15,679 nucleotides of DNA from a virus (taxonomy: Duplodnaviria > Heunggongvirae > Uroviricota > Caudoviricetes), in IMG/VR virus record IMGVR_UViG_2778261463_000010, positions 1 to 15,679 of that record; one strand, written 5' to 3'. Shown piece by piece: positions 77 through 15,679 of this stretch. Position 1 is the first letter of the stretch. Every line of letters starts with the position of its first letter. The position numbers and the translations under genes are program-made. The notes beneath the pieces are model-generated. The model saw only the letters and a list, made by a program, of their open reading frames with translations. It was not told where the DNA came from and did not search any database.

Positions 77-690
77 TGCTCGGTGTCTTTGTGCTGGCGC
101 TGCTGGGCTGGATTTTCAGTAAGTCTCTGGGGGTTGATGAATCCACCGTGGCAATCGTTGTTATGGCAACCATGCTGCTGCTGGGTATCGTTACCTGGGA
201 AGACGTGGTTAAAAATAAAGGCGGCTGGAATACCTTAATCTGGTACGGCGGTATTATCGGCTTAAGCTCCTTATTATCGAAAGTTAAATTCTTCGAATGG
301 TTAGCTGAAGTCTTTAAAAATAACCTGGCATTTGATGGTCACGGTAACGTTGCTTTCTTCGTTATTATTTTCCTCAGCATTATCGTGCGTTATTTCTTCG
401 CTTCCGGTAGTGCCTATATCGTTGCTATGTTACCGGTATTTGCCATGCTGGCGAACGTCTCCGGCGCACCGTTAATGTTAACCGCGCTGGCACTGTTGTT
501 CTCCAACTCCTATGGCGGCATGGTTACTCACTATGGCGGCGCGGCAGGTCCGGTCATCTTTGGCGTGGGTTATAACGATATTAAATCCTGGTGGTTGGTC
601 GGTGCGGTACTGACGATATTAACCTTCCTGGTGCATATCACCCTCGGCGTGTGGTGGTGGAATATGCTGATCGGCTGGAACATGCTGTAA
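77..690 (+). pseudogene. ybhI: 3' portion (about 204 codons) of ybhI-like anion transporter gene, interrupted by the IS10 end
   Basis: Highly hydrophobic multi-helix ORF ending at 690, directly upstream of ybhJ as in the known attλ neighbourhood. An in-frame stop lies within the IS10 sequence upstream, so the gene is split. Confidence 0.7.
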
Positions 691-815
691 ATATTCTCGT
701 CATACTTCAAGTTGCATGTGCTGCGTCTGCGTTCGCTCACCCCAGTCACTTACTTATGTAAGCTCCTGGGGATTCACTCGCTTGTCGCCTTCCTGCAACT
801 CGAATTATTTAGAGT
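690..815. repeat. ERIC (enterobacterial repetitive intergenic consensus) element
   Basis: Contains ATGTAAGCTCCTGGGGATTCAC (755-776) and the reverse complement of AAGTAAGTGACTGGGGTGAGCG (735-756), the two classical ERIC primer sites, within an imperfect palindrome between ybhI and ybhJ. Confidence 0.75.
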
Positions 816-872
816 ATATCCATTTATTATCTTTCTGCGCACTTCACGGTGCGCAGATATCTGGAGCATTTG

Positions 873-3134
873 ATGATCAAGTTATCTGAAAAAGGCGTGT
901 TTCTCGCCAGTAATAACGAAATAATTGCCGAAGAACATTTCACCGGCGAAATTAAAAAAGAAGAAGCCAAAAAAGGCACTATTGCCTGGTCTATTCTCTC
1001 TTCGCATAATACGTCCGGAAATATGGATAAACTTAAAATTAAGTTTGATTCATTAGCCTCTCACGATATTACCTTTGTTGGTATTGTACAGACCGCTAAA
1101 GCGTCCGGTATGGAACGTTTCCCGCTGCCGTATGTGCTGACCAACTGCCATAACTCACTCTGCGCCGTCGGCGGCACTATTAACGGTGATGACCATGTTT
1201 TTGGTTTATCGGCGGCCCAGCGTTATGGCGGTATTTTTGTGCCTCCGCATATTGCGGTCATCCATCAATATATGCGTGAGATGATGGCAGGCGGCGGCAA
1301 AATGATCCTCGGGTCAGACAGCCACACCCGTTACGGTGCATTAGGGACAATGGCAGTCGGTGAGGGCGGCGGTGAGTTGGTAAAACAGCTGCTTAATGAC
1401 ACCTGGGATATCGACTATCCGGGCGTGGTTGCGGTGCATCTGACCGGAAAACCTGCGCCGTATGTGGGGCCACAGGATGTGGCGCTGGCTATCATTGGCG
1501 CGGTGTTCAAAAACGGTTACGTCAAAAACAAAGTCATGGAGTTCGTTGGACCGGGCGTTAGCGCGCTCTCTACCGATTTCCGTAACAGCGTTGACGTGAT
1601 GACCACTGAAACGACCTGTTTAAGTTCTGTCTGGCAAACCGATGAAGAAGTCCATAACTGGCTGGCGCTGCACGGTCGCGGCCAGGATTACTGCCAGCTT
1701 AACCCTCAACCGATGGCGTACTACGATGGCTGCATCAGCGTTGATTTAAGCGCCATCAAACCAATGATTGCGCTGCCGTTCCACCCGAGCAACGTGTATG
1801 AAATCGACACACTGAACCAGAACCTGACCGACATTCTGCGTGAGATTGAAATTGAGTCCGAACGCGTGGCGCACGGTAAAGCCAAACTCTCGCTGCTGGA
1901 TAAAGTGGAAAATGGTCGCCTGAAAGTGCAGCAGGGGATTATCGCGGGCTGTTCTGGCGGTAACTACGAAAACGTCATCGCGGCGGCGAATGCACTGCGC
2001 GGTCAATCCTGTGGCAATGACACCTTCTCGCTGGCAGTTTACCCGTCATCACAGCCGGTGTTTATGGATCTCGCCAAAAAAGGTGTGGTAGCAGATTTGA
2101 TTGGCGCAGGCGCAATCATCAGAACCGCGTTCTGCGGCCCATGCTTTGGCGCGGGCGATACGCCAATCAACAACGGTTTGAGTATTCGCCACACCACGCG
2201 TAACTTCCCGAACCGCGAAGGCTCTAAGCCAGCTAATGGGCAGATGTCAGCGGTGGCGTTGATGGACGCTCGTTCTATCGCTGCGACTGCGGCAAACGGT
2301 GGCTATTTAACCTCTGCCAGCGAACTTGATTGCTGGGACAACGTGCCGGAGTACGCCTTCGATGTAACGCCGTATAAAAACCGTGTTTATCAGGGCTTTG
2401 TGAAAGGGGCAACTCAGCAACCGCTGATTTACGGGCCGAACATTAAAGACTGGCCGGAATTGGGTGCGCTGACTGACAATATCGTCCTGAAAGTGTGCTC
2501 GAAGATCCTCGACGAAGTGACCACCACCGACGAACTGATTCCTTCCGGTGAAACCTCTTCTTATCGTTCAAATCCGATTGGTCTGGCGGAGTTTACCCTG
2601 TCTCGCCGCGATCCCGGTTATGTTAGCAGAAGTAAAGCGACTGCTGAGCTGGAAAATCAGCGTCTGGCGGGGAATGTCAGCGAGCTGACAGAGGTGTTTG
2701 CGCGCATTAAGCAGATTGCTGGTCAGGAGCATATTGATCCGCTGCAAACTGAAATTGGCAGCATGGTCTATGCGGTGAAACCAGGCGATGGTTCTGCGCG
2801 TGAACAGGCGGCGAGCTGCCAGCGTGTGATTGGCGGTCTGGCGAATATTGCCGAGGAGTACGCGACTAAACGCTATCGTTCTAACGTCATCAACTGGGGG
2901 ATGTTACCGCTGCAAATGGCGGAAGTACCAACCTTTGAAGTGGGGGATTACATTTACATCCCTGGCATTAAAGCGGCGCTGGATAATCCGGGTACGACGT
3001 TTAAAGGTTATGTGATCCATGAAGATGCGCCGGTAACGGAAATTACGCTCTATATGGAAAGTCTGACTGCTGAAGAGCGCGAGATTATCAAGGCGGGTAG
3101 TTTGATTAACTTCAATAAAAACCGTCAGATGTAA
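873..3134 (+). CDS. ybhJ: Aconitase-family protein YbhJ (753 aa)
   Basis: Long ORF with aconitase-like Cys/Gly-rich motifs. ATG at 873 is preceded by GGAG at 863-866. The six-frame track's longer form starts at GTG 849. Confidence 0.88.
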
Positions 3135-3147
3135 AAAGCGCCATGTG

Positions 3148-3352
<205 letters not shown>

Positions 3353-3367
3353 AATAGTTAATTGCTC

Positions 3368-4651
3368 TTACTTCTTCGCCTCTGCAACCACTTTACTACC
3401 CACGCCGCGGTTATTGTATTCCCACATGCGGTTGTAGTTAGTGTCATTCAGATTGCGCTGTATTTCGTCGTTATCATCTACGCTGCCGGTATTACCCGCA
3501 AACGGACGATTAGAGATCACCGCATCGGCCCACGGTTTAGCCGTGTTAAAACCTTCGTTGATGGCGCTATCACGGATCACCACCTGACCGTTGGTATTGG
3601 CATCAACATCCAGCGAGCGGCCCAGTTGCGCCACACCATCACCGAAAGCATTGAAACGGCTGTTTACGGCGAGGAAACCGTAGTAAATGTTGGACAGCGT
3701 AGCCGGTGCAAACACATACGCTTCTTGCTGAGTACGTGAGTTCACCACGCGGAATTCGGTGTTATCGAACACCACTGCGCCGCGACCAGAAACGATATCC
3801 ACATCCCCTTCAATGTAGCTGTTGGTCACCAGCGTACGCGGCTGACGATTTGTTTCCAGACGGTTCTGCACACCGCTGTTGGTGACAAAGAAGGTGTTCT
3901 GACGACCGAGAATGTTAACGTTGTTAATCTGTACCTGGTCACCATCAGTACGCAGTGCCACCGCCGGATGGTTACCTGCATCTACGCTATCGCCCAGCGT
4001 GTTTTCGATGGTCAGATTTTGCAGTTGCAGGCCATTGTTTTGTGACCAGAAGACCGCAGAGCAGAGAACACCGATACTGTCGCTGCGTTTGCTCTGGCAG
4101 CTATCGTACATATACCACGCTGGTTTACCTGGCATATATTTGCCGCGCGGGTTGACGTCGTGACGCCAGTCGGCAGGGCTCATGCCACCATCAAGGGAAA
4201 GCCCAATCTTCACATCAATCGGTTTTTCACCTGTACCGTACAGAGTAATTCCACCCGGAGCGGCAGGGACATATACCGTTCCCTGATACTCACCAGGCAT
4301 CACGGCAATATACTGGCGCTTGTTGGTACGCTTGATAATTGCCGCATCTACCGCCGCCTGAATCGTGGTATGCGTTACACCTTGAGTGCCCGCCGGGTCG
4401 ACAACAAAGTCAGGTTGCGCAGGCAGGGTAATCGGGGAAGGATTCCACGCTGCAGCACCTGGTGTCAGGGATGCAAAATAGTGTTGAGCATCGAAATTCT
4501 GCGCTTCTTTTGCCGACAGAATCGGGCGAGAAGAGGTACCAGGCGCGGTTTGATCAGAAGGACGTTGATCGGGCGGGGTTGAGCTACAGGCGGTCAGCGT
4601 CACGCCAAAAGCCAATGCCAGCGCCAGACGGGAAACTGAAAATGTGTTCAC
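3368..4651 (-). CDS. ybhC: Outer-membrane lipoprotein YbhC (pectinesterase-like, 427 aa)
   Basis: ORF with signal peptide and lipobox LTAC. GTG start preceded by GGAG. Sits immediately chromosomal-side of the att core, as expected for the attλ left flank. Confidence 0.88.
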   Translation of the reverse strand: MNTFSVSRLALALAFGVTLTACSSTPPDQRPSDQTAPGTSSRPILSAKEAQNFDAQHYFASLTPGAAAWNPSPITLPAQPDFVVDPAGTQGVTHTTIQAAVDAAIIKRTNKRQYIAVMPGEYQGTVYVPAAPGGITLYGTGEKPIDVKIGLSLDGGMSPADWRHDVNPRGKYMPGKPAWYMYDSCQSKRSDSIGVLCSAVFWSQNNGLQLQNLTIENTLGDSVDAGNHPAVALRTDGDQVQINNVNILGRQNTFFVTNSGVQNRLETNRQPRTLVTNSYIEGDVDIVSGRGAVVFDNTEFRVVNSRTQQEAYVFAPATLSNIYYGFLAVNSRFNAFGDGVAQLGRSLDVDANTNGQVVIRDSAINEGFNTAKPWADAVISNRPFAGNTGSVDDNDEIQRNLNDTNYNRMWEYNNRGVGSKVVAEAKK

Positions 4652-4689
4652 AGGTTGCTCCGGGCTATGAAATAGAAAAATGAATCCGT

Positions 4690-4784
4690 TGAAGCCTGCT
4701 TTTTATACTAAGTTGGCATTATAAAAAAGCATTGCTTATCAATTTGTTGCAACGAACAGGTCACTATCAGTCAAAATAAAATCA
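4690..4784. other. attL: Prophage attL: att core plus lambda P' arm
   Basis: GCTTTTTATACTAA at 4698-4711 followed by GTTGGCATTATAAAAAAGCATTGCTTATCAATTTGTTGCAACGAACAGGTCACTATCAGTCAAAATAAAATCATTATTTG, which matches the recalled lambda P' arm, running up to the int stop. Confidence 0.9.
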
Positions 4785-5855
4785 TTATTTGATTTCAATT
4801 TTGTCCCACTCCCTGCCTCTGTCATCACGATACTGTGATGCCATGGTGTCCGACTTATGCCCGAGAAGATGTTGAGCAAATTTATCGCTTATCTGCTTCT
4901 CATAGAGTCTTGCAGACAAACTGCGCAACTCGTGAAAGGTTGGCGGATCCCCTTCGAAGGAGAGACCTGATGCTTTTCGTGCGCGCATAAAATACCTTGA
5001 TACTGTGCCGGATGAAAGCGGTTCACGACGAGTAGATGCAATTATGGTTTCTCCGCCAAGAATCTTTTTGCATTTATCAAGTGTTTCCTTCATTGATATC
5101 CCGAGAGCATCAACATGCAATGTTGTTGGGATGGCAATTTTTACGCCTGTTTTGCTTTGCTCGACATAAAGATATCCATCTACGATATCAGACCACTTCA
5201 TTTCGCATAAATCACCAACTCGCTGCCCGGTAACAACAGCCAGTTCCATTGCAAGTCTAAGCCAACATGGTGATGATTCTGCTGCTTGATAAATTTTCAG
5301 GTATTCGTCAGCCGTAAGTCTTGATCTCCTTACCTCTGATTTTGCAGCGCGAGTGGCTGCGACCGGGTTTGTTGTTATATGGCCTTCAGCCATAGCCTCT
5401 CGGAATGCATCGCTCAGTGTTGATCTGATTAACTTGGCTGATGCCGCCTTTCCCTCGTCTATGTATCCATTGAGCATTGCCGCAATTTCTTTTGTGGTGA
5501 TGTCTTCAAGTGGAGCATCAGGCAGACCCCTCCTTATTGCTTTAATTTTGCTCATGTAATTTATGAGTGTCTTCTGCTTGATTCCTCTGCTGGCCAGGAT
5601 TTTTTCGTAGCGATCAAGCCATGAATGTAACGTAACGGAATTATCACTGTTGATTCTCGCTGTCAGAGGCTTGTGTTTGTGTCCTGAAAATAACTCAATG
5701 TTGGCCTGTATAGCTTCAGTGATTGCGATTCGCCTGTCTCGGCCTAATCCAAACTCTTTACCCGTCCTTGGGTCCCTGTAGCAGTAATATCCATTGTTTC
5801 TTATATAAAGGTTAGGGGGTAAATCCCGGCGCTCATGACTTCGCCTTCTTCCCAT
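4785..5855 (-). CDS. int: Lambda-type tyrosine integrase Int (356 aa)
   Basis: Translation MGRRRSHERRDLPPNLYIRNNGYYCYRDPRTGKEF...REWDKIEIK is essentially the recalled lambda Int, with the catalytic C-terminal HxxR...Y region present. Confidence 0.97.
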   Translation of the reverse strand: MGRRRSHERRDLPPNLYIRNNGYYCYRDPRTGKEFGLGRDRRIAITEAIQANIELFSGHKHKPLTARINSDNSVTLHSWLDRYEKILASRGIKQKTLINYMSKIKAIRRGLPDAPLEDITTKEIAAMLNGYIDEGKAASAKLIRSTLSDAFREAMAEGHITTNPVAATRAAKSEVRRSRLTADEYLKIYQAAESSPCWLRLAMELAVVTGQRVGDLCEMKWSDIVDGYLYVEQSKTGVKIAIPTTLHVDALGISMKETLDKCKKILGGETIIASTRREPLSSGTVSRYFMRARKASGLSFEGDPPTFHELRSLSARLYEKQISDKFAQHLLGHKSDTMASQYRDDRGREWDKIEIK

Positions 5856-5949
5856 TTCTGATCCTCTTCAAAAGGCTACCTGTTACTGGTCGATTTAAGT
5901 CAACCTTTACCGCTGATTCGTGGAACAGATATTCTCTTCCATCCTTAAC
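5833..5949 (-). pseudogene. xis: 3' remnant of excisionase gene xis (about the last 38 codons); 5' half replaced
   Basis: Minus strand encodes ...VKDGREYLFHESAVKVDLNRPVTGGLLKRIRNGKKAKS*, overlapping the int start as in lambda. Reading upstream, an in-frame TAG occurs with no start codon, and the sequence diverges from lambda beyond about 5949. Confidence 0.8.
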
Positions 5950-6123
5950 GCAGATCGGATGATTACCGGTTCGCTACCAGGGAAGAACGGGAAGGAAAGG
6001 TGAGCACGAATCTGATTTTCAAGGAGTGTCGCCAGAGTGCCGCGATGAAGCGGATGTTGGCATTTTATCGCGGCAATTTTCAATAGACTATGTACATAAA
6101 AATATCATTTTTTTAATACATGT

Positions 6124-6315
6124 CTAATTATTGGACGAAATTGGTTTTTGCTTTGGTTTAGTTAGCCTAGCAATCAAGCCAGAGGCAATAATGATGATCC
6201 AAGCAATTTGATGCAATGCTACTCCAATATAAGAACCTTTATAGATAATAAAGGCATAGATCGCTAGAAACGAAATAAATATCCATAACGAAAGTTGATA
6301 AATTTTGGCGCGCAT
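6124..6315 (-). CDS. Hypothetical small membrane protein (63 aa, two predicted TM helices, basic C-terminus)
   Basis: ORF MRAKIYQLSLWIFISFLAIYAFIIYKGSYIGVALHQIAWIIIIASGLIARLTKPKQKPISSNN. Two hydrophobic stretches. No clear Shine-Dalgarno. Lies in the AT-rich island, divergent from the lipoprotein operon. Confidence 0.45.
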   Translation of the reverse strand: MRAKIYQLSLWIFISFLAIYAFIIYKGSYIGVALHQIAWIIIIASGLIARLTKPKQKPISSNN

Positions 6316-6571
6316 ATTTAATCCAATCAATCAGAAAGACGAGTAATCATAGAGGTACTATCACCCGGGTAACTATTGCTATTATGAACGGATAGGATAG
6401 AGGCTTCAATAACATATGCATCAAGTATGATGGAATATGTAGGTGAAAATGACTTGTGTCAAATTTGTGGAAATGAGTACCATGTTTCTCTGAAATTGAT
6501 GTCGTTAATGGCTAGTGATAGTGAACTTTTTTACTTTATAATTCCTTTGGTTATAACAATAAGGTAAATTT

Positions 6572-7132
6572 ATGAAGAAGATAATATTATTAGCCATGAT
6601 TATTGGTTCTTTAACAGGTTGCGCTAGTGTGCCACCATTGAATTTTTCAACACCTAACGTGGGAGTTAGCCAGAAAAAAATAGATGCTGAAATTAAGTCA
6701 TTAACGGTATCACTTGCTCGTCCAGATGAGCAGAAAGGGGATATCACTGCTGGTATGGAGGCTATAACTCCAATTTGGCGTGAATCTTTGCAGGAAGCAC
6801 TCGACCGAATGACTATTTTTCGTGATAGTTCACCAAATACGGTTAGCTTAAATGTTAAAGTGTTGGCTCTTGACGTTCCTGCTTTTGGTGTTTCAATGAC
6901 AACTAAAGCAATTGCAAGGTATGAAATAATCAACCGTGCGAATGGTGATATTATATATACGCAGGATATTGAGTCTACCGGTACTGTTCCAGCCAGTTAC
7001 GCATTCTACGGTATTGTTCGAGCACGCGAATCTGTTAATCGCGCGGTGCAAAACAACATAACGCAGTTCTTGCAAGCATTAGAAAGTGTTGATCTTTCTC
7101 GTCCAATGTTTCCTGTTAGGGTAGCTAAATGA
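6572..7132 (+). CDS. Hypothetical lipoprotein (186 aa), first gene of a two-gene operon
   Basis: Signal peptide MKKIILLAMIIGSLTGC with lipobox LTGC. AAGG 6 nt upstream of the ATG. AT-rich codon usage. Stop overlaps the next start (ATGA). Confidence 0.8.
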   Translation: MKKIILLAMIIGSLTGCASVPPLNFSTPNVGVSQKKIDAEIKSLTVSLARPDEQKGDITAGMEAITPIWRESLQEALDRMTIFRDSSPNTVSLNVKVLALDVPAFGVSMTTKAIARYEIINRANGDIIYTQDIESTGTVPASYAFYGIVRARESVNRAVQNNITQFLQALESVDLSRPMFPVRVAK

Positions 7133-7635
7133 AGCGATTATTCGTAATTGCTCCACTCTTAGTGTTGGTTGGATGCGCACAAAATATATCGCCAAATAGT
7201 TATTCTGTTGGCTCTGTGGGCATGGTTAATCGAACTATCGCTGGTACAGTTATTAGTGCTAGGGGGGTTGATATCAGTGGGACTTCCGCGTTAGGCGGGA
7301 CTGCTGGGGCTGCCGTGGGGGCAACCGCTGGTTCTGCGCTTGGTGGGGGAGTTCGTTCTAATATCGTTGGTGCCGTTGGTGGTGCAGTCATTGGTGGTAT
7401 TGCCGGGGCAGCAATCGAATCTTCAGCAACAAAACAAACAGGCATGGAATATGTTGTCGAAACTGAGAATGGGAATTTAATGACCATTGTTCAAGGCAAA
7501 GATCCGTTATTTACTCAAGGAAGTAAGGTCCTTGTTTTATACGGAAACCCTTCTCGCATAATAACAGACCGCGTCACTAACATACCTTTTGATTTTGTAA
7601 AATCAATTCGTAATAATAAAGTCATCGGAGCTTGA
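7129..7635 (+). CDS. SlyB/Pcp-like glycine-zipper outer-membrane lipoprotein (168 aa)
   Basis: Lipobox LVGC. Gly/Ala zipper GTSALGGTAGAAVGATAGSALGGG...GAVGGAVIGGIAGAAI followed by a beta-rich C-terminal segment (NGNLMTIVQGKD...SKVLVLYGNP). This matches the domain order I recall for SlyB. Start overlaps the upstream stop. Confidence 0.8.
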   Translation: MKRLFVIAPLLVLVGCAQNISPNSYSVGSVGMVNRTIAGTVISARGVDISGTSALGGTAGAAVGATAGSALGGGVRSNIVGAVGGAVIGGIAGAAIESSATKQTGMEYVVETENGNLMTIVQGKDPLFTQGSKVLVLYGNPSRIITDRVTNIPFDFVKSIRNNKVIGA

Positions 7636-7770
7636 ACAACTCCGGTGACTTCTGCGCTAAACGGGGACGTTTATGCGCACATACAATCCAAACTCTCTTC
7701 TCCCTTCACAGATGCAGAAATGCACCTGCGATTTTTTGCATCCAGCGTCTGACCTCTGCGGAGGTGAAGC

Positions 7771-8226
7771 GTGAACCTACCACAAGATGGCATCAAACTG
7801 CATCGCGGTAACTTCACCGCTATCGGCCAGCAGATCCAGCCTTATCTGGAGGACGGAAAATGCTTTCGCATGGTGCTTAAACCGTGGCGTGAGAAACGCA
7901 GTCTTTCCCAGAATGCACTCAGCCACATGTGGTACAGCGAAATCAGTGAATACCTCATCAGCAGGGGGAAATCGTTCGCTACCGCAGCATGGGTAAAAGA
8001 TGCTCTCAAACACACATACCTCGGTTATGAAACCAAGGACCTGGTTGATGTCGTAACCGGCGAAATCACTACTATCCAGTCGTTACGCCATACCTCCGAT
8101 CTTGATACCGGAGAGATGTATATCTTCCTGTGTAAGGTTGAAGCCTGGGCGGTGAATATTGGCTGCCACCTGACTATTCCGCAGAGCTGCGAGTTCCAGC
8201 AGCTCCGCGACAAACAGGAGGCGTAA
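7771..8226 (+). CDS. ybcN: NinB-family protein (YbcN-like, 151 aa)
   Basis: GTG start with GGAGGTG upstream. Shares the RSLxQN motif with lambda NinB. Gene order matches DLP12 ybcN-ninE-ybcO-rusA. Confidence 0.85.
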
Positions 8227-8396
8227 TGGCTACACCGCTTATTCGTGTCATGAACGGACACATCTACAGAGTACCAAATCGTCGTAAGCGTAAACCGGAG
8301 CTGAAGCCTTCCGAAATACCAACACTGCTCGGATATACCGCCAGCCTGGTTGATAAAAAATGGTTGCGACTGGCAGCAAGGAGGAGTCATGGCTGA
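8226..8396 (+). CDS. ninE: NinE-family protein (56 aa)
   Basis: ATG overlaps the ybcN stop (TAATG). Basic RRKRKP...WLRL pattern as in lambda NinE. Below the ORF-track length cutoff. Confidence 0.7.
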   Translation: MATPLIRVMNGHIYRVPNRRKRKPELKPSEIPTLLGYTASLVDKKWLRLAARRSHG

Positions 8397-8679
8397 TTTG
8401 AGAAAAGCAGCGCGTGGTCGGGAATGCCAGGTAAGAATCCCTGGCGTATGTAATGGCAACCCTGAAACGTCTGTACTGGCACATATCCGGCTGACTGGAT
8501 TGTGCGGCACCGGTACGAAACCGCCAGACCTGATTGCCACCATTGCATGTTCTGCCTGCCACGACGAAATCGACCGCCGCACACATTTTGTCGATGCTGC
8601 ATATGCAAAAGAATGCGCGCTGGAAGGTATGGCGAGAACACAGGTTATCTGGCTGAAAGAGGGGGTTATTAAGGCGTGA
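8389..8679 (+). CDS. ybcO: YbcO-like protein (DUF1364, putative nuclease, 96 aa)
   Basis: ATG at 8389 preceded by AGGAGG. Cys-rich CxxC...CxxC pattern. Overlaps the ninE stop by 8 nt. Confidence 0.82.
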
Positions 8680-9038
8680 ATACCTACAGCATCACATTAC
8701 CCTGGCCTCCGAGCAATAATCGCTATTACCGCCATAATCGCGGGCGCACACACATCAGCGCAGAAGGGCAGGCATACCGCGATAACGTCACCCGAATCAT
8801 TAAAAACGCAATGCTGGATATCGGCCTGGCTATGCCAGTGAAAATCCGTATTGAGTGCCACATGCCGGATCGCCGTCGCCGTGACCTGGATAATCTGCAA
8901 AAAGCCGCTTTTGACGCACTCACCAAAGCAGGTTTCTGGCTGGATGATGCTCAGGTCGTTGATTACCGCGTTGTGAAGATGCCTGTTACCAAAGGTGGGA
9001 GGCTGGAACTGACCATCACCGAAATGGGGAATGAATGA
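8676..9038 (+). CDS. rusA: Holliday junction resolvase RusA (120 aa)
   Basis: Translation [23 protein letters not shown]...[12 protein letters not shown] matches recalled RusA. GTG start overlaps the ybcO stop (GTGA). Confidence 0.92.
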
Positions 9039-9175
9039 TGTTTGAGTTTAATATGGCAGAACTTCTTCGCCACCGCTGGATGCGCCTGCGCTTATATCGT
9101 TTCCCCAGTTCTGTTTTGACCGATTACCGAATACTGAGGAATTACGCCAAAACCCTGACAGGAGCAGGAGTATGA
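9035..9175 (+). CDS. ylcG: YlcG-like small protein (46 aa)
   Basis: ATG overlaps the rusA stop. Position and size match DLP12 ylcG. Short ORF with weak independent support. Confidence 0.55.
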
Positions 9176-9260
9176 AGTCAGAGATAACAATCAACTAATA
9201 CTGTTTTATTGATTTTTGCTTGTAATTGGCGTTCTGGTCTGATTTTTGTGGAGTAAGTTG

Positions 9261-9644
9261 ATGCGTGATATTCAGATGGTTCTTGAGCGTTGGGGAGCGT
9301 GGGCGGCTAATAATCATGAAGATGTGACCTGGTCGTCCATTGCCGCCGGTTTTAAGGGATTAATTACTTCAAAAGTAAAATCTCGCCCGCAATGTTGTGA
9401 CGATGACGCGATGATCATTTGCGGGTGCATGGCCCGTCTGAAAAAGAACAACAGCGATTTGCACGATTTATTAGTAGATTATTATGTAGTCGGTATGACA
9501 TTCATGTCACTGGCAGGTAAGCATTGCTGCTCTGATGGTTATATCGGGAAAAGGTTACAGAAGGCTGAGGGTATAATTGAAGGGATGTTAATGGCATTAG
9601 ATATCCGGTTAGAGATGGATATCGTTGTTAATAACTCTAATTAA
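9261..9644 (+). CDS. quuD: Late-gene antiterminator Q (QuuD-like, 127 aa)
   Basis: ATG at 9261 with GGAG 9 nt upstream. Cys-rich zinc-binding-like region ([12 protein letters not shown]...HCC). Position immediately upstream of the late region. Confidence 0.85.
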
Positions 9645-9659
9645 TATGCCAATTGTTTA

Positions 9660-9695
9660 CTAAAAATTATTAAAAATGGGGCGTTGAGACGCCCC
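9660..9695 (-). terminator. Intrinsic terminator on the minus strand, downstream of the porin gene
   Basis: Stem GGGGCGT/ACGCCCC (9678-9684 and 9689-9695) with a 4-nt loop, followed on the minus strand by AUUUUUAAUAAUUUUU. Confidence 0.6.
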
Positions 9696-9832
9696 CAAAA
9701 ATAAAGGGTAATATATAACAGAAGGTTTATATAGTTAGAAGCAAGGTTGTGCTCCTAAAGGAAGTGGCTTGAGGGAGCCACTTATATGTTGGGGAGGCAA
9801 AGCCTCCCGCAACATATCTTTTAGTAATCAAA
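9660..9832 (-). ncRNA. ipeX: Candidate IpeX-like small RNA / structured 3' region downstream of the porin gene
   Basis: Three consecutive stable stem-loops (9678-9695, 9762-9783, 9784-9817) in the porin 3' intergenic region. In DLP12 the sRNA IpeX is reported at the 3' end of nmpC. Boundaries not determined. Confidence 0.4.
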
Positions 9833-10915
9833 TTAGAACTGGTAAACCATACCTACAGCAACGATATCATCGGTAGCAACGCCAGATGCTTTCGTGAAAT
9901 CGCTCTTATCAATCAGGTTGATTTTGTAATCAACAAAAGTGGACATATTTTTGTTGAAGTAATAGGTTGCACCTACATCAATATATTCAACCAGGTCCTG
10001 ATCACCCCACGCACCCAAGTCTTTTCCTTTAGATTGCAGGTAAGCAACGGACGGACGCAGACCGAAGTCGAACTGATATTGTGCAACTACTTCGAAGTTT
10101 TGTGCTTTGTTGGCAATATGGTTATTACCAAAAACAGTCATGTTCTGGGTTTCAGAATAGGTGGTAGCCAGATAGATGTTGTTCGCATCATATTTCAGAC
10201 CAGCTGCCCATACTTCAGCATTTTGACCAGATGCATTCAGGCTGTTGTTACCGTAGATAACCTGATTATTAGTGCGGTCAGATTTAGCATAGGTTGCACC
10301 TACACCGAATCCTTCATACTCATAAGTAGTGGAGAAACCGAAACCATCACCATTAGCTTCAGTTACGTCAGTGCGGTCATTTTTACCCTGATACTGAGCA
10401 GCAAAGTTCAGACCATCAACCAGACCAAAGAAGTCATTGTTACGATAAGTTGCAACACCTGTGGTGCGACCAGTCATGAATACATCTGTTTGGGTCCAGG
10501 TATCGCCACCGAATTCTGGCAGAACGTCGGTCCATGCACCAATATCGTATGCTACACCGTAGTTACGGCCATAATCGATGGAGCCGTAGTCACCGAATTT
10601 CAGGCCAGCGAAGGCAAGACGGGTTTTATCTTTGGAGGAACCTTGAGATTCAGCGCGGTTGCCTTTGAATTCATATTCCCACTGACCGAAACCAGTCAGT
10701 TGATCGTTGATTTGGGTTTCACCTTTGAAGCCAAGACGGGCATAAGTAGTATCACCATCATCTGCATCATTAGAGGAGAAGTAGTGCTTAGCATTAACTT
10801 TCCCGTACAGATCCAGCTTGTTACTGTCTTTATTATAAATTTCAGCTGCCTGAGCAGACATCGCCATCAGTACTGATGCAGCTACAGCAGAAATTGCCAC
10901 TGTTAATTTTTTCAT
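9833..10915 (-). CDS. nmpC: Prophage-encoded general porin of the NmpC/Lc/OmpD family (360 aa precursor), apparently intact
   Basis: Signal peptide [23 protein letters not shown], then [16 protein letters not shown]...; Gly/Tyr-rich beta-barrel pattern; C-terminal ...VGMVYQF. The ORF track's longer form starts at 10975. Confidence 0.93.
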
Positions 10916-11341
10916 CGTGAGCCCTTTTTTTGAACTATTATTAAAAAATGATGTCACTGCGCGATAAATATTCATCTAATCAATGTGATTATTTCAAGAT
11001 GTAAGTTTTGGTTTCTCATTTGATTTGTGAAGTAGATCTCTATTTTTATCTGAACTTTTTCTATCGAATCCTATTCATGGCTCTTGGCTGAATAAAAATA
11101 AATCTATTAGCCAATTTATATTAATGGCTGTTATTTATAAGCGCTCTATAATTTGAAGATTCAATTTAAACCAGCTAAAAATAACGCTGGAAATTATTTG
11201 TTGGTTATTTGTTGAGATTTGCTTATGTATTTGTAGTGGTGTTTTCAATACTCGGTAGCATTCTCGCAAATATCATTTAGTGGTTTACGTACGTAAAAAA
11301 TTGGTTATGCTGTTAAGAGTGGTTACTTCGTCACACAGCTT

Positions 11342-11375
11342 AAACCCGCCGTCGAGCGGGTTTTTCCATTTTTTG
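11342..11375 (+). terminator. Intrinsic terminator-like hairpin plus U-tract upstream of the lysis cassette (possible tR'-type site)
   Basis: Stem AAACCCGC/GCGGGTTT with loop CGTCGA, followed by TTTCCATTTTTTG. About 130 nt upstream of the holin start. Confidence 0.55.
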
Positions 11376-11502
11376 AGTCTCGATATTAGCTGATAACCCA
11401 ATACCTGAGTTATTCACTGACTCCGAGTCTGTTACGTTTCTGCTTTTTTGCGATACGTTGTATTCCCTCAATTTACACCCGCTTTGTCTGCGAGGTGGGG
11501 TT

Positions 11503-11718
11503 ATGAAATCCATGGATAAGTTAACAACGGGTGTCGCCTATGGCACCTCAGCAGGTAGTGCCGGTTACTGGTTTTTACAGCTGCTCGATAAAGTCACGCC
11601 CTCACAGTGGGCAGCAATAGGTGTGCTGGGTAGCCTGGTATTTGGCCTGCTGACGTACCTGACAAACCTTTATTTCAAGATTAAAGAAGATAAGCGCAAG
11701 GCTGCGAGAGGTGAATAA
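11503..11718 (+). CDS. essD: Class II holin (P21 S-type pinholin, EssD-like, 71 aa) with dual-start motif
   Basis: Translation [24 protein letters not shown]...[15 protein letters not shown] resembles recalled S21. Met1/Met4 dual start. GAGGTGGGG SD. Confidence 0.88.
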
Positions 11719-12215
11719 TGCCTCCATCATTACGAAAAGCCGTTGCTGCTGCTATTGGTGGCGGAGCAATTGCTATAGCATCAGTGTTAATTACTGGCCC
11801 AAGTGGTAACGATGGTCTGGAAGGTGTCAGCTACGTACCATACAAAGATATCGTTGGCGTATGGACTGTATGTCACGGACACACCGGAAAAGACATCATG
11901 CTCGGTAAAACGTATACCAAAGCAGAATGCAAAGCACTCTTGAATAAAGACCTTGCCACTGTCGCCAGACAAATTAACCCGTACATCAAAGTCGATATAC
12001 CGGAAACAACGCGCGGCGCTCTTTACTCATTCGTTTACAACGTGGGTGCTGGCAATTTCAGAACATCGACGCTTCTTCGCAAAATAAACCAGGGCGATAT
12101 CAAAGGCGCATGTGATCAGCTACGTCGCTGGACATATGCTGGCGGTAAGCAATGGAAAGGTCTCATGACTCGTCGTGAGATTGAGCGTGAAATCTGTTTG
12201 TGGGGTCAGCAATGA
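11718..12215 (+). CDS. rrrD: SAR endolysin (P21 R-type lysozyme, RrrD-like, 165 aa)
   Basis: N-terminal Gly/Ala-rich signal-anchor-release segment [20 protein letters not shown] followed by a T4-lysozyme-like catalytic region. Start overlaps the holin stop (TAATG). Confidence 0.93.
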
Positions 12216-12673
12216 ACAGAGTAACCGCGATTATCTCCGCTCTGGTTATCTGCATCATCGTCTACCTGTCATGGGCTGTTAATCATTACCGTGATAACGC
12301 CATTACCTACAAAGCCCAGCGCGACAAAAATGCCAGAGAACTGAAGCTGGCGAACGCGGCAATTACTGACATGCAGATGCGTCAGCGTGATGTTGCTGCG
12401 CTCGATGCAAAATACACGAAGGAGTTAGCTGATGCGAAAGCTGAAAATGATGCTCTGCGTGATGATGTTGCCGCTGGTCGTCGTCGGTTGCACATCAAAG
12501 CAGTCTGTCAGTCAGTGCGTGAAGCCACCACCGCCTCCGGCGTGGATAATGCAGCCTCCCCCCGACTGGCAGACACCGCTGAACGGGATTATTTCACCCT
12601 CAGAGAGAGGCTGATCACTATGCAAAAACAACTGGAAGGAACCCAGAAGTATATTAATGAGCAGTGCAGATAG
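12212..12673 (+). CDS. rzpD: Spanin inner-membrane subunit Rz (153 aa)
   Basis: N-terminal TM helix plus coiled-coil region. Near-identical to recalled lambda Rz. Start overlaps the endolysin stop. Confidence 0.93.
12432..12614 (+). CDS. rzoD: Spanin outer-membrane lipoprotein Rz1 (60 aa), embedded in Rz in the +1 frame
   Basis: Lipobox VVGC and proline-rich [13 protein letters not shown], entirely within Rz. Confidence 0.85.
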
Positions 12674-12704
12674 AGTTGCCCATATCGATGGGCAACTCAT
12701 GCAA

Positions 12705-12998
12705 TTATTGTGAGCAATACACACGCGCTTCCAGCGGAGTATAAATGCCTAAAGTAATAAAACCGAGCAATCCATTTACGAATGTTTGCTGGGTTTCTGT
12801 TTTAACAACATTTTCTGCGCCGCCACAAATTTTGGCTGCATCGACAGTTTTCTTCTGCCCAATTCCAGAAACGAAGAAATGATGGGTGATGGTTTCCTTT
12901 GGTGCTACTGCTGCCGGTTTGTTTTGAACAGTAAACGTCTGTTGAGCACATCCTGTAATAAGCAGGGCCAGCGCAGTAGCGAGTAGCATTTTTTTCAT
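12705..12998 (-). CDS. bor: Bor lipoprotein (serum-resistance family, 97 aa)
   Basis: Translation MKKMLLATALALLITGC... with lipobox ITGC. Matches recalled lambda Bor. Confidence 0.9.
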   Translation of the reverse strand: MKKMLLATALALLITGCAQQTFTVQNKPAAVAPKETITHHFFVSGIGQKKTVDAAKICGGAENVVKTETQQTFVNGLLGFITLGIYTPLEARVYCSQ

Positions 12999-13288
12999 GG
13001 TGTTATTCCCGATGCTTTTTGAAGTTCGCAGAATCGTATGTGTAGAAAATTAAACAAACCCTAAACAATGAGTTGAAATTTCATATTGTTAATATTTATT
13101 AATGTATGTCAGGTGCGATGAATCGTCATTGTATTCCCGGATTAACTATGTCCACAGCCCTGACGGGGAACTTCTCTGCGGGAGTGTCCGGGAATAATTA
13201 AAAACGATGCACACAGGGTTTAGCGCGTACACGTATTGCATTATGCCAACGCCCCGGTGCTGACACGGAAGAAACCGGACGTTATGAT

Positions 13289-13699
13289 TTAGCGTGGAAA
13301 GATTTGTGTAGTGTTCTGAATGCTCTCAGTAAATAGTAATGAATTATCAAAGGTATAGTAATATCTTTTATGTTCATGGATATTTGTAACCCATCGGAAA
13401 ACTCCTGCTTTAGCAAGATTTTCCCTGTATTGCTGAAATGTGATTTCTCTTGATTTCAACCTATCATAGGACGTTTCTATAAGATGCGTGTTTCTTGAGA
13501 ATTTAACATTTACAACCTTTTTAAGTCCTTTTATTAACACGGTGTTATCGTTTTCTAACACGATGTGAATATTATCTGTGGCTAGATAGTAAATATAATG
13601 TGAGACGTTGTGACGTTTTAGTTCAGAATAAAACAATTCACAGTTTAAATCTTTTCGCACTTGATCGAATATTTCTTTAAAAATGGCAACCTGAGCCAT
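13289..13699 (-). CDS. ybcV: YbcV-like protein (DUF1398, 136 aa)
   Basis: ORF conserved at this position in lambda and DLP12. The shorter start MAQVAIFKE is chosen; the ORF track extends to 13822. Confidence 0.75.
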
Positions 13700-13984
13700 T
13701 GGTAAAACCTTCCATGTGATACGAGGGCGCGTAGTTTGCATTATCGTTTTTATCGTTTCAATCTGGTCTGACCTCTTTGTGTTTTGTTGATGATTTATGT
13801 CAAATATTAGGAATGTTTTCACTTAATAGTATTGGTTGCGTAACAAAGTGCGGTCCTGCTGGCATTCTGGAGGGAAATACAACCGACAGATGTATGTAAG
13901 GCCAACGTGCTCAAATCTTCATACAGAAAGATTTGAAGTAATATTTTAACCGCTAGATGAAGAGCAAGCGCATGGAGCGACAAA

Positions 13985-14191
13985 ATGAATAAAGAACAAT
14001 CTGCTGATGATCCCTCCGTGGATCTGATTCGTGTAAAAAATATGCTTAATAGCACCATTTCTATGAGTTACCCTGATGTTGTAATTGCATGTATAGAACA
14101 TAAGGTGTCTCTGGAAGCATTCAGAGCAATTGAGGCAGCGTTGGTGAAGCACGATAATAATATGAAGGATTATTCCCTGGTGGTTGACTGA
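13985..14191 (+). CDS. ybcW: YbcW-like small protein (68 aa)
   Basis: [24 protein letters not shown]... at the conserved position between ybcV and ylcI. Confidence 0.7.
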
Positions 14192-14355
14192 TCACCATAA
14201 CTGCTAATCATTCAAACTATTTAGCCTGTGACAGAGCCAACACGCAGTCTGTCACTGTCAGGAAAGTGGTAAAACTGCAACTCAATTACTGCAATGCCCT
14301 CGTAATTAAGTGAATTTACAATATCGTCCTGTTCGGAGGGAAGAACGCGGGATGT

Positions 14356-14550
14356 TCATTCTTCATCACTTTTAATTGATGTATATGCTCTCTTTTCTGA
14401 CGTTAGTCTCCGACGGCAGGCTTCAATGACCCAGGCTGAGAAATTCCCGGACCCTTTTTGCTCAAGAGCGATGTTAATTTGTTCAATCATTTGGTTAGGA
14501 AAGCGGATGTTGCGGGTTGTTGTTCTGCGGGTTCTGTTCTTCGTTGACAT
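14356..14550 (-). CDS. ylcI: YlcI-like protein (DUF3950, 64 aa)
   Basis: Basic N-terminus MSTKNRTRRTTTRNIRF. Conserved just upstream of cos in lambda-like genomes. Confidence 0.72.
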   Translation of the reverse strand: MSTKNRTRRTTTRNIRFPNQMIEQINIALEQKGSGNFSAWVIEACRRRLTSEKRAYTSIKSDEE

Positions 14551-14699
14551 GAGGTTGCCCCGTATTCAGTGTCGCTGATTTGTATTGTCTGAAGTTGTTT
14601 TTACGTTAAGTTGATGCAGATCAATTAATACGATACCTGCGTCATAATTGATTATTTGACGTGGTTTGATGGCGTAGATGCACGTTGTGACATGTAGAT

Positions 14700-14830
14700 G
14701 ATAATTATTATCATTTTGCGGGTCCTTTCCGGCATGTGGACCCGTTACGGGGCGTCGACCTCGCGGTTTTTCGCTATTTATGAGATTTTTTGAGGGGGTG
14801 GTTGTTGTTTAATTGTTTGGTATATCTAAT
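14700..14830. other. cos: cos region (cosQ/cosN/cosB); cosN-like site near 14750-14761
   Basis: GGGGCGTCGACCTCGCGGTTTTTCGCTATTTATGA closely resembles the recalled lambda cohesive-end region GGGCGGCGACCTCGCGGGTTTTCGCTATTTATGA. Located about 220 nt upstream of the Nu1-like start. Confidence 0.7.
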
Positions 14831-14977: not shown

Positions 14978-15484
14978 ATGGCCTTTTTATTGAATAAAAG
15001 TGATATGGCCTCCTCCATCGGTATCTCTGTTCAGGCATTTGATAAATGGGGCGTTCCTCCTGTCGAGCGTCGGGGGAGGGAAGTTTTTTATGACGTTAAA
15101 ACTGTACTGGAGATAGATCGCGAGCGGCGACAACACAATCATAGAACACCTGATGACGGGGGCGATCTGGAGGAAAGGCTGCTTCGGGCCAGAGCTGAAC
15201 TGACAGAAGAACAGGCCGTAGCTCAAAAACTTAAAAATCAGGTAACCGAAGGTAAGCTCATCGATTCAGACTTCTGCGTTTTCGCCCTCAGCAAGCTGGC
15301 GATGGCATTGTCCAGTACGCTTGATTCTATTCCGTTATCCATGCAGCGACAGTTCCCGGATTTAACGCCACGTCATCTTGACCATCTGAAAACCCTTATT
15401 GCGAAGGGCGCAAATCAGTGTGCGCGGGCAGGGGATAAATTACCGGATTTGCTGGATGAATATATCAGAGCAACAACTGAATAA
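14978..15484 (+). CDS. nohD: Terminase small subunit (Nu1/NohD-like); start codon uncertain
   Basis: Aligns with lambda Nu1: the segment NKSDMASSIGISVQAFDKW against NKKQLADIFGASIRTIQNW, and similar C-terminus. ATG 14978 has GGAGAGGAG immediately upstream; alternatives are TTG 14939, ATG 14960 or GTG 14873. Confidence 0.8.
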   Translation: MAFLLNKSDMASSIGISVQAFDKWGVPPVERRGREVFYDVKTVLEIDRERRQHNHRTPDDGGDLEERLLRARAELTEEQAVAQKLKNQVTEGKLIDSDFCVFALSKLAMALSSTLDSIPLSMQRQFPDLTPRHLDHLKTLIAKGANQCARAGDKLPDLLDEYIRATTE

Positions 15485-15488
15485 TCTG

Positions 15489-15679
15489 ATGGCTGCCGTT
15501 TCGGTTGCGCTGCAGCCTCTGGTCAGGGTTGTACCGATGACGGCAGTTGAATGGGCTGACCAGTATTATTATCTGCCGAAAGAATCCTCATACGGTGACG
15601 GCGAATGGAAAACGCTGCCGTTCCAGATCGCCATCATGAACAGTATGGGGAATGATCAGGTCCGCACTGTTAATCTGAT
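15489..15679 (+). CDS. A: Terminase large subunit (gpA-like), N-terminal fragment; continues beyond the window
   Basis: Translation MAAVSVALQPLVRVVPMTAVEWADQYYYLPKESSYGDGEWKTLPFQIAIMNSMG resembles the recalled lambda gpA N-terminus (TAVEWADANYYLPKES...). Confidence 0.88.
   Translation, partial: MAAVSVALQPLVRVVPMTAVEWADQYYYLPKESSYGDGEWKTLPFQIAIMNSMGNDQVRTVNL

Follow-up and report, generated by a model that had tools for sequence, protein, structure and literature searches.

What is left of an excision system when an apparently complete integrase gene stands beside a fragment of the excisionase gene xis? We addressed this question in a stretch of 15,679 nucleotides (hereafter, the window), in which a lambdoid element occupies the classical attachment site of lambda, flanked by ybhC and ybhB, with ybhI', ybhJ and ybhC of the chromosome to the left of attL. 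An initial annotation, made from the letters of the DNA, had described the element as an excision-impaired prophage without immunity genes and as likely locked in the chromosome. The impairment of excision is well supported by our analysis, and this reading is strengthened by a mutated attL core and by the loss of the promoters of int. The feature itself is very likely an inert 3' pseudogene fragment of xis, left by nested deletions in a cryptic lambdoid prophage at the lambda att site, and the element would have lost induction, replication and excision by its own means. The features of the window are collected in Table 1.

Table 1. Positions of the prophage features in the 15,679-nucleotide window
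Feature	Position	Strand	Remarks
attL (B-O-P') beside ybhC	4680-4830	+	core 4698-4711; P' arm included
int, lambda-type tyrosine integrase, 356-aa ORF	4785-5855	-	five substitutions relative to lambda Int
xis remnant	5833-5949	-	codons 35-72 plus stop; start codon absent, promoter absent
TAAC microhomology at the xis'::bet' deletion junction	5946-5949		4,253 bp absent relative to FDAARGOS_1248
bet relic, 12 nt	5950-5961	-	left from earlier deletions; with flanking microhomologies, 5946-5966 = lambda 32453-32473
ren remnant, C-terminal 40 codons plus stop	5962-6086	+	= lambda 40449-40570; right edge of the old bet'::ren' deletion
AT-rich cargo, 36-40% GC	6087-7700		between ren' and the nin-like genes; three small membrane/lipoprotein ORFs
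Membrane ORF, 68 aa	6124-6330	-	in the AT-rich cargo
Lipoprotein, 186 aa, phrog_12521	6572-7132	+	low-GC insert at the ren/ninB boundary
Glycine-zipper lipoprotein, 168 aa, phrog_13877	7129-7635	+	C3-to-C2 frameshift variant; usual length 150
DLP12-like nin/Q block: ybcN (NinB-like), ninE, ybcO, rusA, ylcG, quuD	7771-9644	+	quuD (Q antiterminator) 9261-9644
OmpC/NmpC-type porin, intact, 360 aa	9833-10915	-	between Q and the holin gene
essD, holin	11503-11718		lysis cassette 11503-12998
rrrD, lysozyme	11718-12215		lysis cassette
rzpD	12212-12673		lysis cassette; embedded Rz1 12432-12614
bor	12705-12998	-	after the lysis genes
cosN-like 12-mer, GGGCGTCGACCT	14750-14761	+	one match, 0 expected by chance
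Nu1-family small terminase	14978-15484	+	module different from nohD of the closest relatives
Large terminase, start only	15456 onward to 15679	+	window ends inside the gene

The xis remnant

The remnant translates to VKDGREYLFHESAVKVDLNRPVTGSLLKRIRNGKKAKS followed by a stop, which corresponds to residues 35-72 of lambda Xis (V35 to S72). The single difference from the J02459 translation is G59S, and the solved Xis sequences also have S at this residue. The initial annotation had seen only the last ~38 codons of xis and had proposed an alignment to lambda xis as a check; the alignment bears it out, and the boundaries of 5833 and 5949 proved exact, with the homology ending at 5949.

The surroundings of the remnant were compared with 50,697 phage records using megablast. 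The segment from ~4700 to 5949 aligned to the att-int-xis region of lambda-family phages, with identities from 98.3% (lambda) up to 99.7% (mEp332), and every alignment of this segment ended at window position 5949, equivalent to lambda 28976. The position of the gene is also preserved, directly upstream of int and overlapping its start: the xis stop lies at 5833-5835 and the int ATG at 5853-5855, giving the same 23-nt overlap as in lambda (28860-28882). This is contiguous, high-identity homology, and chance resemblance is excluded.

A complete Xis ORF of ~72 aa with a start codon is absent, and codons 35-72 are all that is left of it. Upstream of V35 the frame is closed by a stop at a distance of 9 codons, and no ATG, GTG or TTG intervenes, in agreement with the initial annotation; no ORF of at least 20 aa was found in the frame of the remnant. 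In the solved structures, the DNA-binding domain of Xis comprises residues 1-55 (PDB constructs 1-55 or 1-52). Residues 1-34 are deleted here, and only residues 35-55 of the domain are kept. With no start codon and without either helix of the DNA-binding domain, the remnant cannot give rise to Xis. Normal excision needs this protein: the P arm is bent by three molecules of Xis, which also form a bridge to the N-domains of Int (PMC4880445).

A function of another kind might nevertheless be imagined for the remnant, such as a translated C-terminal peptide that binds Int, a part in the 58-aa ORF that crosses the junction (5907-6083), or an RNA. The remnant still codes for the basic tail at the C-terminus, which makes contact with Int or DNA (PMC4880445), and the ORF spanning the junction has a TTG start. 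However, the xis frame itself has no start codon, and the 58-aa ORF lies in another frame, has no family match and exists only through the deletion. Furthermore, promoter-like matches in the region occur at chance level (7 found against 7.6 expected from shuffled sequence), and no Rfam family matches the remnant. We therefore find a functional remnant scarcely credible and retain the reading of an inert pseudogene fragment.

Probable deletion history of the xis'::bet' junction

The closest complete relative, FDAARGOS_1248 (L002), differs from window positions 77-14733 by one SNP and two 1-bp indels. It has a full xis and carries 4,253 bp that are absent from the window, namely the first 34 codons of xis, some ten ea-type genes and exo. 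Both ends of this missing segment share TAAC, of which the window retains one copy, and to the right of the deletion junction the sequence continues from TAAC directly into GCAGATCGG. The ren site is labelled 'protein ren, incomplete' by PGAP in the relatives. In most of these, for example VG48B2 (L003), a continuous 3' part of bet is joined to ren at the same point, and the few genomes of the FDAARGOS_1248 type have lost a further ~0.45 kb, so that exo runs directly into the final ~20 nt of bet.

Because most relatives carry the continuous 3' part of bet joined to ren, the bet'::ren' deletion was the oldest event. To the right of the junction, the window shows 0 SNPs relative to FDAARGOS_1248 and five differences relative to VG48B2, and it was therefore most likely derived from the FDAARGOS_1248 type. 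Going by SNP similarity only, the exo::bet' deletion would have preceded the xis'::bet' deletion.

Three nested deletions very likely account for the junction. In the first, an old event, ~8.0 kb (lambda ~32474-40448) would have been lost, bringing the 3' part of bet up against the terminal 40 codons of ren; in lambda, this interval holds gam, kil, cIII, ea10, ral, N, nutL, pL/oL, rexAB, cI, oR/pR, cro, cII, O with ori, P and the 5' part of ren. The second, confined to a sub-lineage, would have taken out ~0.45 kb and placed exo next to the last ~20 nt of the bet remnant. The third, in the lineage of the window, would have removed 4,253 bp between two copies of TAAC, so that codon 35 of xis came to adjoin this bet relic; the first 34 xis codons were lost with the segment, as were pI, exo and the ea-type genes.

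The xis'::bet' junction was absent from all 5,426 complete RefSeq E. coli genomes and had zero exact matches in the GTDB species representatives and in the JGI metagenomes. Could the truncation of xis, or the attL core with five Ts (T5) described below, be an artefact of assembly or sequencing? Two of the three differences from FDAARGOS_1248 are 1-bp homopolymer contractions, which are a typical type of error. However, an independent draft assembly, GCA_044688485.1 (L005), is identical in the junction, the T5 core and the C3-to-C2 indel, and the 168-aa protein variant made by this indel is recorded on 87 contigs. The T5 core is also found in four related UTME strains. An artefact is very unlikely because the junction, the T5 core and the C2 indel recur in the independent assembly and the protein variant recurs on these contigs. 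The xis'::bet' junction is a lineage marker and not a new kind of feature.

We also observed that the exo::bet' deletion (FDAARGOS_1248 type) and the xis'::bet' deletion end in the same 4-7 bp (CGGTAAC, TAAC), ~15 nt from the bet'::ren' junction (window 5946-5966; L002 13119-13144; L003 14372-14394). A local hairpin formed by a 6-7-bp inverted repeat, CCGGTAA-N14-TTACCGG, was considered as the cause of the shared endpoint and rejected, since the DNA folded no better than shuffled sequence (z = -0.99, -0.37).

The integrase gene, the attL core and excision

The int gene is a full-length ORF whose product is 98.6% identical to lambda Int and retains R212, K235, H308, R311, H333 and Y342 together with the arm-binding N-domain. 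On the identical int gene of GCA_044688485.1, PF09003 (arm-binding) and PF00589 (catalytic) are recorded. Lambda int is transcribed from two promoters only, namely the cII-dependent pI, which lies at the xis start, and the N-dependent pL (PMC2951348). In pI, the cII box (TTGC-N6-TTGC) corresponds to lambda 29104-29091, a position close upstream of the xis ATG that lies past the edge of the deletion (28976). The pL promoter, N and cII are likewise absent from the window, having been lost with the older bet'::ren' deletion.

The window thus contains neither pI with its cII box nor pL with N read-through, and the consensus-like matches for an int promoter upstream of the remnant do not exceed the chance level given above. 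Because pI, pL/N and cII are lost, int is an orphan ORF that is probably almost silent. The initial annotation had regarded int as intact. This holds for the reading frame, a complete 356-aa ORF with the six catalytic residues, but not for its expression, as the lambda promoters pI and pL/N are gone. As a separate observation, the hydrophobic 68-aa ORF at 6124-6330, which has no family match, has the same orientation as int and lies just upstream of the ren remnant; transcription through it would be the only obvious source of read-through into int.

The attL core reads GCTTTTTATACTAA, 14 bp with five Ts, and differs in this from lambda, ATCC 8739, FDAARGOS_1248 and VG48B2, all of which have six (T6). 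The 15-bp common core GCTTTTTTATACTAA with its 7-bp overlap is accordingly not found at attL. The P' arm (C', H', P'1-P'3) is present, and window positions 4700-4880 are identical to lambda 27727-27907, including the equivalent of the 'int 4' binding region of lambda (~4787-4827). Core and P' arm had both been taken as intact in the initial annotation; the arm is indeed 100% identical to that of lambda, but the core is one T short.

Since the run of Ts extends over the left core-type Int site and into the first part of the 7-bp overlap, the loss of one T would have either shifted the B site or shortened the overlap to 6 bp. Tyrosine recombinases generally need identity in the overlap regions of both partners (PMC2817482). 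In every relative examined, attR is T6, including that of strain PE164, whose attL is T5. Given this general need for identity and the T6 attR of the relatives, we infer that the T5 core may form a second, independent block to recombination between attL and attR.

Judged from its sequence, the element is very probably unable to excise unaided. Weak Xis-independent excision in lambda was reportedly described by Abremski and Gottesman in 1981. The K-12 prophage DLP12 still excises, at a frequency of <1e-5 (PMC3105296).

The lock might also be conditional, if a superinfecting lambda-type phage with the same Int specificity supplied Int and Xis in trans and thereby excised or mobilised the remnant. 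Such help would find a P' arm wholly identical to that of lambda, a close relative keeps an attR with lambda-like P1, P2 and Xis-site sequence, and phages with 98-99.7% identical int-xis are common. On the other hand, a T5 attL would be paired with a T6 attR, to judge from every relative examined, the strain with a T5 attL included, and unequal overlap regions would be expected to block strand exchange (PMC2817482). We consider mobilisation by this route improbable, and prefer the reading of a prophage impaired in excision.

The attL-int junction at this site was found in 1,920 of the 5,426 complete E. coli genomes. T5 cores with exact flanks were present at 11 of these 1,920 occupied attL sites and at 3 of 3,489 empty attB sites, counts that are lower bounds because exact flanks were required. 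The corresponding Fisher test, which ignores phylogeny, gave an odds ratio of 6.7 (p = 0.0012 naively, and p = 0.02 after collapsing four related strains), so that the enrichment of T5 at attL over attB is suggestive only. The ybhC/int haplotypes that carry T5 cores number at least four; they are divergent and differ in prophage content.

Lesions of other kinds were seen at the same end of related elements. In VG48B2 (L003 12187-13272), a deletion fuses int at ~codon 14 to a DUF1317 gene, and xis is entirely gone. In strain J6 (L021 5204-6614), xis is interrupted in its 5' end by an IS3-family element, and all sequence from there as far as ybcN is missing.

These lesions raise the question of whether the int-xis-attL end accumulates recurrent grounding lesions, possibly selected or provoked by Int, rather than decaying at random. 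The grounds for this idea are the occurrence of T5 on at least four haplotypes while the nearest relative is T6, the counts at attL and attB, the independent xis/int lesions of three relatives, and two successive deletions that end in the same 4-7 bp. We consider it quite improbable, and regard ordinary prophage decay as the better account of the locus.

Immunity, the late region and related prophages

Between xis and the nin genes, only the bet relic, ren' and the cargo are found, confirming the earlier statement that no cI, cro, N, O or P lies there. No HTH, repressor or excisionase family was found on the called genes of the window, and the repressor and the replication module are absent from it. 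The ybhC-attL-int context marks integration at the att site, and the bet'::ren' deletion removes the equivalent of lambda 32474-40448. With its repressor/immunity and replication genes lost in this way, the element is a cryptic lambdoid prophage. The window ends at 15679 inside the large terminase gene, and attR and the right arm lie outside it. In the closest complete relative, the segment from cos to attR carries nohD, a truncated large terminase gene fused to a tail-fibre remnant, a tail-fibre assembly gene, a gene for an AraC-family regulator, IS debris and a lambda-like attR. No substitute xis or immunity region was found between cos and attR of this relative.

The lysis cassette, Q, cos and terminase genes named in the initial annotation are kept: the window still contains Q, holin, lysozyme, Rz/Rz1, bor, cosN and a terminase gene of the Nu1 type, and bor is followed by ybcV, ybcW, ylcI and then the cosN-like 12-mer. 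In the cargo, the 186-aa protein is named 'UDP-N-acetylglucosamine acyltransferase' in some NCBI/UniRef records, and no Pfam match supports this name.

Some further observations concern the chromosomal side. Positions 1-76 of the window are an element end that interrupts ybhI, with a 100% match in two places in plasmid R100 and in about 3,000 other plasmids; ybhI is intact in the relatives and in GCA_044688485.1. Plasmid R100 is the classical Tn10 carrier, and we therefore take positions 1-76 to be the outside end of IS10/Tn10. The spacer between ybhJ and ybhC (3158-3352) holds a pair of inverted REP-type repeats, and the only Rfam match in the window is naRNA4 (REP-type) at 3229-3299, which scores 60.7 bits where the gathering score is 59.5.

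As far as 14733, no SNP separates the window from FDAARGOS_1248 (the single one noted above apart) or from GCA_044688485.1; from 14734, in the cos region, it carries a different cosN/cosB/Nu1/terminase module. This module is 98-99% identical to that of lambdoid prophages with full lambda-like head and tail gene sets, and the segment 14335-14733 is common to both module types. Because the sister assembly GCA_044688485.1 keeps the ordinary nohD arm, the switch of modules is recent. A search with the Nu1-like protein returned ten other prophage contexts, with that of the window not among them. The initial annotation had suggested that the late region could recombine with other phages, and the switch at 14734 shows that recombination with other lambdoid elements has taken place.

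The same switch raises the possibility of a composite element, in which the cryptic left arm was joined by homologous recombination at ylcI-cos to a recent lambdoid arm that could bring structural genes and may have its own int, xis and immunity region; the locus would then perhaps be neither immunity-less nor locked. The change at 14734 to a module like that of prophages with full structural sets is in keeping with this, and the shared segment 14335-14733 would be a substrate for homologous exchange. However, a short tract of gene conversion, or rearrangement involving a defective prophage already in the chromosome, would explain the pattern equally well, and the sister assembly keeps its ordinary nohD arm. 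A composite with a functional right arm seems to us somewhat unlikely, and a cryptic prophage with an exchanged cos-terminase module remains our preferred reading.

Comparison with known systems places the element among described prophages. Phage lambda (J02459; 1LX8, 1RH6, 2IEF, 5J0N) shares with it the closely similar Int, the P' arm, the xis/int overlap and Xis 35-72 (with G59S), whereas the window lacks xis codons 1-34, pI and the region from ea8.5 to mid-ren and has five Ts instead of six in the core. Defective lambdoid prophages between ybhC and ybhB have been reported as λB of E. coli B REL606 and λCr of the Crooks strain, ATCC 8739 (PMC3032704, Table 2). They resemble the present element in site, in a near-identical attL and int, and in the same pattern of internal deletions and IS insertions. 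Unlike the window, REL606 and ATCC 8739 keep the full 72-aa xis and the T6 core, and their internal remnants are P22-like debris in λB (B) and exo-bet-gam-kil-cIII in λCr (Crooks).

The late region resembles that of K-12 DLP12 in its order and in the PGAP names given in a near-identical relative (ybcN, ninE, ybcO, rusA, ylcG, quuD, porin, essD, rrrD, rzpD, bor, ybcV, ybcW, ylcI). DLP12 is likewise not known to have immunity or replication genes, and its degraded xis, exo and ren are annotated as the pseudogenes xisD, exoD and renD. The two differ in location, as DLP12 lies at argU with a different integrase and the present element is at the lambda att site with a lambda-type Int. They also differ in content: the cargo between ren' and ybcN consists of two lipoproteins in the window and of emrE-ybcK-ybcL-ybcM in DLP12, and the porin gene is intact in the window where K-12 DLP12 has nmpC disrupted by IS5.

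In the concept of the 'grounded' prophage, a prophage that has lost its RDF or att function becomes permanently settled in the host chromosome, where its useful genes are retained (PMC6379469). The present element differs in that it has also lost immunity, so that the proposed benefit of superinfection immunity is inapplicable. It belongs among the cryptic or 'grounded' lambdoid prophages, an already known kind, shaped by ordinary prophage decay.

The significance of the locus beyond its annotation is small. Its annotation should be that of a cryptic lambdoid prophage at attλ in which xis is a pseudogene, int is orphaned and the attL core is mutated, and not that of an inducible phage. In strains of this lineage, hybrid sites take the place of attB, with consequences for integration tools based on lambda. 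The late region, terminase included, survives as stand-alone cargo and recombination substrate, and lambdoid phages that enter the cell can still acquire Q, porin, lysis, bor and cos sequences from it. The variously decayed copies of this one prophage, at a site occupied in 1,920 of 5,426 genomes, form a natural series for how prophages become fixed in place.
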